DNA of 64,000 nt from a virus (lineage: Duplodnaviria; Heunggongvirae; Uroviricota; Caudoviricetes), in IMG/VR virus record IMGVR_UViG_2568526086_000002, positions 1,489 through 65,488 of that record; one strand, written 5' to 3'. Shown here one piece after another: positions 32,053 to 32,980 of this stretch; position 1 is the first letter of the stretch, and the number at the start of each line of letters is the position of its first letter. The position numbers and the translations under genes are program-made. The notes below the pieces were generated by a model. The model was given only the letters and a program-made list of their open reading frames with translations, searched no databases and had not been told where the DNA came from.

Positions 32053-32900
32053 GCACAACAGGTAAGGGTATTTTGCGACGTCGGAGATCGCCGAGCTTGG
32101 CAGAGGGTTCGAATCCCTACGAAGTACCCTTACCGTTGTGATGAATGCGCAGGCTGATGCGCGAAAGACATTGCAGCTATTGCGGAAAAGAGCTGTTCGG
32201 CGGGGCAATTAAACGCCCGTGAGAGTCTGAAATAACCGCAAGCCGGAGATCAGCACCGGTCATCACAACACAACAGGTAAGGGCATTCTCCCTTATGGGG
32301 CTTGGCTTAAATGCATCGAGTGCTCTTACCGTTGTGATGAAGTGCAGCTCTTTGAAGCAACCAGAAGATAAGCATCTGGCTTCACAACATAAACCGCAGG
32401 AACGACCAATAAACGGTAGTCCGTATGGAGAACACCCCGTTGAGGAAGAGGCCTGGCCGGAACCGTAACCGGCACTACAACGTTGAGAACACTGGCGTAA
32501 CGGGGTCATATCCCAATCTACGAATAAATGTTGCGTTGCAGCGTGACAACCAGTGTTCTCAACATTGTGGTGAATGCACAGGCTGATGTGCCGCAACTAC
32601 AGTAGTGCGCGCTTTGCGGGGCTTGCTACAACCCTGTGTCGGAGTTCAGCACCGACCATCACAGTTTGATTCTCTGGCATGAGCATAACGCTGAAATAAG
32701 TCCAGCCTGGTGCGGCCCGATCACCCGCCGTTAGCTCCACGAAACGGAGCACGTAACAGGTAAGAGCATTCTCCTGTAACGGGTTCATATCCCAATCTAC
32801 AGGTCCACCAAGAATGCTCTTTCCGTTGCGGTGAATGCGGCTAAGCGCACGCGGGGAAATGGTTATATCAGTCCATTCATTTCTCCTTGTTTCCCCGTCC
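32053..32900. repeat. Non-coding array of 3-4 related structured units (long hairpins 'cacaacaggtaagRgcattctcc...' followed by the box 'gtgRtgaaRtgcNcaggctgatg'). Candidate small RNAs or tRNA-derived elements.
   Basis: Units at about 32054-32165, 32268-32345, 32480-32590 and 32752-32850 share hairpins of 13-14 bp and common 3' boxes. No plausible ORF lies on either strand. Confidence 0.5.
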
Positions 32901-32980
32901 ACGGTGGATAACCAGCCAAAGGACACCGGGAGGCACCCGGCACCGCAGCTTTTTTATTCGTTAAATAATGGAGTGAGAGG

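Follow-up and report, generated by a model that had tools for sequence, protein, structure and literature searches.

The transfer RNA (tRNA) cluster of phage T4 yields 'species 1 and 2', small stable RNAs of a phage tRNA operon that are matured by the host tRNA and RNase III machinery, and the lambda leader contains a hairpin, cut by RNase III, between nutL and N. Two prophage small RNAs (sRNAs) are more immediately relevant here. PasD of enteropathogenic E. coli (EPEC) is an abundant RNA that has been verified by Northern blot and is present in Hfq RIL-seq chimeras (PMC8550237), STnc100 RNA has been detected in outer membrane vesicles of Shiga toxin-producing E. coli (PMC12370729), and common ancestry of PasD1 and STnc100 is argued for in a 2026 preprint. 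The put RNA of HK022 is a two-stem, ~70-nt V shape that acts in cis on RNA polymerase (PMC9378689). The locus that we compare with these RNAs lies in a 64,000-nt stretch (positions 1,489-65,488 of IMGVR_UViG_2568526086_000002; hereafter, the window), which belongs to a P1-like phage or plasmid. At positions 32053-32957, the + strand of the window carries folded RNA modules in a non-coding array.

The array consists of four units arranged head to tail, 3' of the ban promoter and two tRNA genes. A sequence-only reading of this DNA had described a ~0.9-kb non-coding array of four hairpin units at 32053-32980, 3' of tRNA-Thr: its coordinates are right and all of the features that it described are in the sequence. 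Its definition of the units was incomplete, however, as each is made up of two different modules, here termed H and M. These alternate essentially without spacer, abutting both each other and the CCA end of tRNA-Thr. The array does not encode protein, its + strand is folded, and its helices are under selection. The view that it represents a structured small-RNA family unexplained by the protein annotation is borne out, with covarying helices, folding of the + strand and conservation far beyond the P1-like phages: the modules are members of a very widespread family of phage and prophage RNAs. They are almost wholly uncatalogued, and their nearest curated relative is STnc100 (and PasD). The prophage sRNAs STnc100 and PasD, linked to pathogenic E. 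coli and Stx phages, are thereby tied to a much larger family of structured RNAs in temperate and virulent phages.

Structure and covariation of the M and H modules

M has a fixed order of elements: a 9-bp closing helix, a 3-nt linker (AAU), a near-invariant hairpin (GCGCA-GGCUGA-UGCGC), a centre of variable sequence and length, and finally a hairpin (5 bp, loop AGAUCAGCA) lying directly against the 3' strand of the closing helix. M is 82-243 nt long in all. This order corresponds to that of a tRNA (acceptor, D arm, variable region, T arm, acceptor), except that a variable insert takes the place of the anticodon arm, and the modules are packed with tRNAs in the same transcription unit. M differs from tRNA in lacking an anticodon arm, in the length of its closing helix and in loops that can pair over 5 nt, and its tRNA likeness is one of topology, not homology. 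In a single locus (L129, 3944-4056), the centre of M is a tRNA D arm plus T arm without an anticodon arm, and this segment passes the Rfam tRNA threshold (34 bits).

The M helices are supported by two sets of sequences. In an alignment of 42 M sequences (A1), 96% of helix cells are paired and compensatory change is observed at 15 of 24 pairs (7/9 for the closing helix among them); this level was not attained in any of 500 shuffles, and slid controls collapsed. In a second, separately collected and model-fitted set of M copies from IMG/VR (A3), compensatory change is found at 7/9 pairs of the closing helix, 5/5 of the first hairpin and 4/5 of the last hairpin. The balance of G·U and A·C was ambiguous in A1 (22:13), but the larger A3 set is decisive: G·U outnumbers A·C by 40 to 6, indicating that the folded strand is the + strand, co-oriented with the tRNAs. 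Folding, which the sequence-only reading had proposed for each unit, gave over 32050-32980 z = -7.0 for the + strand, which folds much better than its shuffles, and z = -4.3 for the - strand. Covariation, which that reading had proposed to seek in P1-like genomes, is present: the units recur, and covary, in hundreds of other phages.

The two M loops are complementary (GCUGA:UCAGC) and are 'paired' in 98.9% of cases. They are also almost invariant, with variants that are mostly wobble-compatible. Compensatory change between the loops is seen in L118 (GACUGA:UCAGU), and a double-compensatory case occurs in L005, Klebsiella phage 5 (GCCCA:UGGGC). Given near-invariant loops, few compensatory cases and two counter-examples, a loop-loop kiss is plausible but not proven. 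The outcome for M includes a defined consensus, covariation-supported helices and a tertiary contact that can be tested.

Other likenesses of M were rejected. A hammerhead core (CUGAUGA) noted by eye is missing the required A9, and the Rfam ribozyme models gave no match. For a C/D-box k-turn (GUGAUGA...CUGA), also noted by eye, the required placement of the D box is missing. An NCCA tail after the closing helix seemed enriched (28/85 copies); in at least one subgroup, a closing helix extended by CCAAAG/CUUUGG accounts for it, and the tail is not counted as evidence. A generic regular-expression finder for M produced many false positives (such as a coding-region class starting TGCCAGCATGATGAG), and a covariance model of M (R1) was used instead. 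The training set of R1 included M1 and M3, but not M4.

H is a long irregular hairpin, in which a variable 'cargo' (25-100 nt) is enclosed by a conserved stem (13-25 bp) containing a fixed mismatch or bulge. Stem length is 13-23 bp for the hairpins of the window and reaches 28 bp among relatives. The commonest stem (CACAACAGGUAAGAGCAUUG / CAGUGCUCUUUCCGUUGUG) has a conserved bulged A and a U·U mismatch, and many stems of unrelated sequence have the same shape. A hairpin of at least 12 bp lies directly 5' of M in 57/94 distinct copies (versus 20/94 shuffles), its 3' arm running into the 5' strand of M. A boxA-like GCTCTT is found in 17/94 of the H 3' arms, with 1.2 expected. The H3-type hairpin shows compensatory change at 15/29 pairs (0/500 shuffles), with G·U at 23 versus A·C at 7.

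The cargo is of several kinds, namely a T-arm mimic, a GGGNUCAUAUCCCAAUC box and a CCCUUAUGGGGCUUGG box. About 10% of modules carry the T-arm mimic, H1 among them; T-arm-like hairpins occur at 0.38/kb in H and M segments versus 0.012/kb in the background (~30-fold enrichment). The cargo box of H3 and H4 (CGGGNYCAUANCCCAAUC) is present in at least 120 IMG/VR stretches, and the H2 cargo is present in at least 119, with covarying outer stems. In Klebsiella phage 5 LV-2017, the H2 cargo is identical and the stem is changed.

The features of the array, together with a fifth H-type hairpin (H0) that sits outside the region delimited by the sequence-only reading, are as follows.

31615-31698, + strand: H0, long hairpin of H type (CAACAGGTAAGGGCGCTG...CAGCGTCCTTTCCTGTTG; direct repeat D4), 5' of the tRNAs; minimum free energy (MFE) -37.9 (+) vs -32.3 (-) kcal/mol
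32055-32141, + strand: H1, long hairpin with a T-arm-like hairpin in its interior; MFE -38.4 vs -31.6 kcal/mol
32135-32269, + strand: M1, canonical M module; R1 score 91.6 bits, but as a training sequence; 98% identical to lambdoid phage copies
32270-32337, + strand: H2, long hairpin with conserved cargo CUCCCUUAUGGGGCUUGGCUUAAAUGCAUCGAG; MFE -30.6 kcal/mol
32331-32390, + strand: M2, short M variant (58 nt, loop AGAUAAGCA); weak R1 match, 9.7 bits
32391-32472, + strand: linker with small hairpins (e.g. CCGGAACCGTAACCGG) in the MFE fold
32473-32574, + strand: H3, 23-bp hairpin with cargo box ACGGGGUCAUAUCCCAAUCUAC; structure supported by covariation
32564-32665, + strand: M3, canonical M module; R1 score 72.8 bits, but as a training sequence
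32734-32750, + strand: small conserved pre-H hairpin GCUCC-ACGAAAC-GGAGC, also 5' of H in Klebsiella phage 5, L056 and L101
32755-32830, + strand: H4, hairpin with the cargo box of H3 (ACGGGUUCAUAUCCCAAUCUAC)
32825-32949, + strand: M4, M module of STnc100/PasD type; closing helix GUUGCGGUG/CACCGCAGC, hairpin CCGGG-AGGCA-CCCGG
32950-32957, + strand: T-run directly 3' of the M4 closing helix, a possible 3' end of the array transcript; not called by the consensus terminator scan

The arms of H1 (32061-32073 / 32122-32134; 13 nt), H3 (32473-32495 / 32550-32572; 23 nt) and H4 (32759-32772 / 32811-32824; 14 nt) are 92%, 91% and 93% complementary, respectively. The 13-14 bp hairpin consensus that had been assigned to all four units fits H2, H4 and in part H1, but not H3, which has a wholly different, compensatory stem. 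Similarly, the conserved box said to follow each hairpin exists as a four-copy direct-repeat family (at 32129, 32325, 32558 and 32819), but it is the 5' half of the larger M module, which had gone unrecognised. The motif GG(G/T)TCATATCCCAATCTAC is indeed common to two units (32497-32521 and 32776-32800, 96% identical), and the T-arm-like AGGGTTCGAATCCCT of the first unit is present at 32105-32119, inside H1. M1 is built from the closing helix GUUGUGAUG/CAUCACAAC, the hairpin GCGCA-GGCUGA-UGCGC, an 80-nt centre and the hairpin GCCGG-AGAUCAGCA-CCGGU, while M3 has the hairpin GCACA-GGCUGA-UGUGC and the loop AGUUCAGCA. Homologues of M2 in Sasha (Sashavirus), SPN9CC (P22-like) and pJN2-26 score 18-22 bits, and their closing helix is fully compensatory.

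Relation to known RNAs and distribution among phages

Within the array, Rfam (another check proposed at the outset) provides a relative for M4 alone: STnc100 (RF02076), with 37.8 bits and E=3e-6 over 32827-32947 (model positions 31-147), which is below the gathering score of 47. PasD1 of EPEC E2348/69 scores on par with M4 against this model (37.7 bits). R1, for which M4 is not a training sequence, finds M4 with 30.5 bits and E=7e-6. M4 and STnc100 have the same closing helix (UGGUGAAU.../...CACCA), internal hairpins and last hairpin (CCGGGAGGCACCCGG), but M4 does not have the 3' single-stranded seed and Rho-independent terminator of the model (positions 148-206), the T-run being found instead. 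Like the array, STnc100 and PasD are borne by phages or prophages in operon leaders near Q, lysis or TerB-type genes; they are solitary sRNA genes, whereas the modules here are arrayed with hairpins and tRNAs. An M-like module constitutes the 5' domain of PasD, which is apparently a free-standing sRNA (candidate promoter by eye). M1, M2 and M3 are undetected by the STnc100 model (the M1/M3 loops are GGCUGA / AGAUCAGCA).

E. coli EC-1639 (NZ_LR025101.1) has a type I-E CRISPR array whose terminal spacer, at the end facing cas1/cas2, is identical to the 3' end of M4 (window 32916-32947; CAAAGGACACCGGGAGGCACCCGGCACCGCAG), showing that a protospacer was taken from this conserved RNA-gene sequence.

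At the gathering threshold, Rfam identifies only the tRNAs, C4/a1b1 and sok in the window; at E<=10, matches in the array are limited to STnc100 for M4 and miRNA-type noise on the long hairpins. Neither ARAGORN nor RF00005 (29 bits) makes a call inside 32053-32980. The best Rfam matches of H1 are weak and tRNA-like (tRNA-Sec, 14.6 bits; mascRNA, 14.9 bits). YrlA / Y RNA (RF02553, threshold 69 bits) was rejected: the sole match (25.6 bits) overlaps the real tRNA genes (Asn and Thr) rather than any part of the array, and there was no sign of a Ro/Rsr gene. Rfam 15 has no entry for the M1-type module or the H hairpins, and our literature searches turned up no description of them, nor any P1 transcriptome data or account of the M motif. 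There is a real chance that M is a distinct, uncharacterised RNA class.

Comparison with the other systems gives partial likenesses. T4 species 1 and 2 are similar in their tRNA-operon setting, but are not known to have the M or H consensus. The H stems may be likened to RNase III leader hairpins (the lambda N-leader rIII site and the T7 early R sites), as they are irregular double-stranded RNA with an internal mismatch or bulge, but they carry conserved cargo motifs and simple processing sites do not. A dicF-like RNA, recalling the dicF operon, is located in the same P1 leader. Like nut sites, M is promoter-proximal in pL and late leaders, with a boxA-like GCUCUU followed by a 5-bp hairpin; here, however, the boxA-like sequence is inside the H stem and therefore base-paired, and no N-like open reading frame (ORF) adjoins the array in the window. 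The put RNA is likewise promoter-proximal in leaders. Identity with put was rejected on architecture, M being a closed three-way module of 82-243 nt (a comparison made by published description only).

The modules are widely distributed. Pattern scans of IMG/VR gave at least 120 matches for the M 5' box and at least 120 for the M 3' box, and R1 recovers ~200 M copies in 189 IMG/VR loci. Full M modules are found in alpha-, beta-, gamma- and deltaproteobacterial contigs, and also in a few metagenome-assembled genomes assigned to other phyla, where binning errors are possible. Of 5426 complete E. coli genomes, 1362 have a match to the 928-nt region, in most cases via M1 in chromosomal prophages.

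Neighbouring genes were counted by clustering the ORFs around 313 distinct M instances (raw-ORF orientation statistics were uninformative). On the M strand, a CI-like repressor gene lies 5' of M in 63 instances and Q in 19; 3' of M there are holin (25), endolysin (23) and TerB-like genes (21), as well as an N-like antiterminator gene that follows immediately in 14. M typically follows cI in pL leaders, separates Q from the lysis genes, or sits in phage non-coding RNA/tRNA cassettes. A terminator is located 3' of M within 21-39 nt in 12/98 copies and within 200 nt in 19/98, and terminators also occur directly 5' of some H or M modules. The modules sit in the leaders of key regulated phage operons (pL, late and ban), and their role, whether in trans or in cis, likely bears on phage gene expression or host takeover.

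Individual loci illustrate these settings. In L088 (~7900-8140), the order is pL, a canonical nutL (boxA + boxB), a small hairpin, M and an N-like gene, such that M is in the position of the lambda RNase III site; by eye, L041 and L052 have the same boxA + boxB 5' of M, and there too an N-like gene is 3' of it. The lambdoid nutL boxA near M reads CACUUUAACAA / UGCUCUUUAACAA, and the N-like gene has an arginine-rich motif of phage-21 type (GTAKSRYKARRA). HK620 has M 3' of pR'/qut, ahead of the annotated late terminator. The M of mEp460 and Stx2a_WGPS2 belongs to the pL leader, with a strong terminator 3' of it, and in both the interval from cI to the first early-left gene contains no annotated N. 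In mEp460 (L003 470-658), C4 antisense RNA and isrK adjoin an antirepressor gene, so that a P1-type immI module is combined with an M-containing pL leader. In the pL leaders of L003 (3150-3290) and many other loci, an intrinsic terminator (GGCGGUACCAG...CUGGUACCGCUCUUUUU) is located directly 5' of an H3-type hairpin; the extended stem of this hairpin pairs the terminator U-tract with a downstream GGAGAA, an arrangement that is conserved.

In the Klebsiella T1-like phage ZC2, a cassette antisense to the tail genes contains H and M together with a candidate promoter (by eye), an 'X' element (described below) and a degenerate tRNA. The latter, directly 3' of M, resembles tRNA-Arg(UCU), but its acceptor stem is broken (L202 2105-2163; Rfam tRNA, 39 bits). 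An Ackermannviridae phage has several modules within a 2.6-kb non-coding region. Linkage to tRNA was rejected as a family-wide rule for M: among the subset of copies checked, few have a tRNA within 1.5 kb, suggesting that this linkage is a feature of the P1 type.

In the window, the array region is the leader of the ban operon, as judged by homology to the annotated P1 record. Segments that the window has in common with P1 are 97-99% identical, 31500-33100 is 99-100% identical to phages vB_EcoM-813R1 and RCS47, and the window has C4 antisense RNA with a1/b1 targets as well as three tRNAs arranged as in P1. The leader includes 1.7 kb of untranslated RNA ahead of the first ORF, and its features 5' of the array are as follows.

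31214-31241, + strand: C1 operator Op72ab / Pban promoter region, identical to the annotated P1 operator; controls the array-containing operon
31404-31426, + strand: intrinsic terminator (terminator scan) ending a 'dicF-like' leader RNA, where P1 annotates a dicF-like region; 5' of the array
31899-31974, + strand: tRNA-Asn (GTT)
31977-32052, + strand: tRNA-Thr (TGT); the array begins 1-3 nt past its CCA end

The strong terminator is only ~180 nt 3' of Pban. Just past it, at ~31440-31500, is the conserved 'X' element (GCGACUUUGCGG..AGAAACUGACC..AAAUGCAAACGA), which is also found 5' of H-M units in HK620, Klebsiella phage ZC2 and Ackermannviridae phage K751. The array is followed by a 78-aa membrane ORF, an SPFH/Band-7 lipoprotein gene, tRNA(CAT) and ban. 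The first two of these (32981-34025; the lipoprotein is 275 aa) replace P1 tciA/tciB/tciC (TerB-like), and TerB-like genes are also common 3' neighbours of M in lambdoid prophages.

The composition of the array varies among relatives. P1 is missing window 32153-32318, which is exactly one M1+H2 unit, the breakpoints falling within a junction that is repeated (CTTACCGTTGTGATGAA). In D6 and Ro157c2YLVW, the modules are combined differently and extra tRNA genes are present. tRNAs can thus replace or join modules: tRNA-Ser in D6, tRNA-Tyr in Ro157c2YLVW, and in pJN2-26 a tRNA-Ser-like sequence seen by eye and uncalled by ARAGORN.

Function of the array and competing explanations

We favour, with a probability of about 0.5, a model in which the array is a polycistronic stable-RNA precursor that is cut at the H stems, releasing M RNAs that act in trans. 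The array would be co-transcribed with tRNA-Asn and tRNA-Thr in the C1-repressed ban leader, and the precursor would be processed within the long H stems, which resemble substrates of RNase III type, and possibly also at the tRNA-like closing helices of M. Cleavage would free compact, nuclease-resistant M RNAs, parting them from the tRNAs and the downstream mRNA. The freed RNAs may be regulators that associate with Hfq, in the manner of PasD/STnc100, or may decoy a conserved host factor; the invariant hairpins would provide a scaffold or binding surface, and specificity would come from the variable centre. This stable-RNA operon model is based on the tight packing of the array, the interchange of tRNAs and modules, the excess of H hairpins 5' of M, and the position of M in L088 (and, by eye, L041 and L052), where lambda has its RNase III site.

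Several observations weigh against this model. Cleavage by RNase III or RNase P is predicted from shape alone. The T-run is found only at M4; M1-M3 have neither terminators nor obvious single-stranded seeds, and are therefore not typical Hfq sRNAs. R1 does not recover PasD at E<=0.1, so that the M1 class is linked to PasD solely via M4/STnc100. The loop pairing is near-invariant, with just one compensatory cell in A3 and A·C counter-examples in L066 and L138. CRISPR interference (CRISPRi) knock-down of P1 trnT, plp and upl, the latter two being annotated antisense to the array, gave no plaque phenotype (PMC10695390). Finally, the strong bias of M towards operon leaders fits a role in cis equally well.

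A broader proposal can be made only tentatively. M (GGUGAAUGCGCAGGCUGAUGCGC ... GCCGGAGAUCAGCACCGGCCACC) may be an uncatalogued, Proteobacteria-wide class of phage RNA, a tRNA-like kissing-loop 'clamp' whose invariant hairpins would dock a conserved host machine and thereby allow phages to take over RNA metabolism or to terminator-proof their leaders. Candidate machines are RNA polymerase, a tRNA-processing or tRNA-modifying enzyme and an RNase, and phages would use M alone or arrayed with cargo-bearing H hairpins. M could also serve as a natural RNA scaffold for engineering.

The main rival, that the modules act in cis on elongation, seems to us somewhat unlikely. By this account, nascent H-M RNA would modify RNA polymerase or exclude Rho, so that transcription can pass through a long, terminator-containing untranslated leader into the genes beyond (ban in the window, and the early-left or late genes of lambdoid phages), the boxA-like UGCUCUUU in the H 3' arm and the hairpins that follow being akin to HK022 put or rrn boxA. 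It is consistent with the location of M on the operon strand of promoter-proximal leaders (after CI-like genes or Q, before lysis genes, and in the ban leader), with the terminators near M, some of them directly 5' of H or M, and with the window leader itself, which has both the 31404-31426 terminator and a long untranslated RNA. The lack of an annotated N gene in the pL leaders of mEp460 and Stx2a_WGPS2 and the excess of GCTCTT in H 3' arms point the same way, and hairpins that are near-invariant across Proteobacteria would suit a conserved machine such as RNA polymerase. However, the boxA-like sequence is buried in a long stable stem, and where a canonical nutL is present (L088) it is separate and 5' of M, with an N-like gene after M. 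Furthermore, the ZC2 cassette is antisense to its neighbouring genes, an M-like module heads PasD, and put is a two-stem V rather than a closed three-way module (PMC9378689). We consider it unlikely that the modules are processing punctuation, i.e., structured spacers without an RNA function of their own that steer RNase III/E/P cleavage, separate tRNAs from mRNAs and protect ends. Their tight packing with tRNAs, long double-stranded stems, interchange with tRNAs among relatives and non-essentiality under P1 CRISPRi (PMC10695390) would all be expected of such spacers, but spacers would not keep ~25-nt near-invariant hairpins across several proteobacterial classes or preserve specific cargo boxes, and most of the M copies checked have no tRNA inside 1.5 kb.

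The sequence-only reading had offered decayed tRNA copies as an alternative, and we regard an origin of the units as decayed tRNA genes or tRNA-derived pseudogenes of a once larger phage cluster as very unlikely. The enrichment of T-arm-like hairpins in H and M, the Rfam tRNA matches in the L129 M centre and just after M in ZC2, and the cloverleaf-like topology of M are the observations that recommend it. No unit is called by ARAGORN or at the Rfam tRNA thresholds, though, the anticodon arm is absent, and the tRNA-like pieces (the H1 T arm; the L129 D arm and T arm) make up just one kind of cargo among several. The compensatory changes, along with loops that hardly vary, indicate purifying selection on a non-tRNA consensus, and the covariation largely refutes decay. 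Least credible, and highly improbable, is that the array is a DNA-level element (recombination or cassette-boundary sites, attC-like or linkers for homologous exchange) or that plp and upl are real genes. Unit-sized indels do break in the repeated junction, and the H ends loosely resemble the R''/R' boxes of integron attC sites (RCACAAC...GTTGTGR, matching 6/7 and 5/7 positions by eye). Identity with attC was rejected, since no integron integrase is involved and the strand bias indicates RNA: the excess of G·U over A·C in both M (40:6) and H3-type hairpins (23:7), together with a constant orientation relative to the host operon, argues for a transcribed strand. As for coding, P1 annotates both genes, but the ORFs match no protein family and their boundaries vary among relatives.

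Antisense reading frames and other features of the window

The sequence-only reading had found no credible ORF on either strand of the array. ORFs do exist on the - strand (139 aa, 32177-32596; 109 aa, 32597-32926), but neither is credible. In P1 (L001, NC_005856), plp ('putative lipoprotein') and upl are annotated antisense over the array at 3024-3593, corresponding to ~32023-32780 of the window, with plp overlapping tRNA-Thr. No Pfam family matches the - strand ORFs of the window or P1 Plp/Upl, and the ORF boundaries in the window differ from those of plp and upl despite ~98% identity. Since these boundaries are unconserved in such close relatives and no Pfam match is found, plp and upl are probably annotation artefacts. 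On this basis, the two doubtful genes would leave the P1 reference annotation and be replaced by RNA features.

Elsewhere in the window, a sok antitoxin RNA (114 bits) is found at 15053-15227, and the C4 antisense RNA with its a1/b1 targets is at 11388-11593. Both are ordinary features of P1-type plasmid-prophages.

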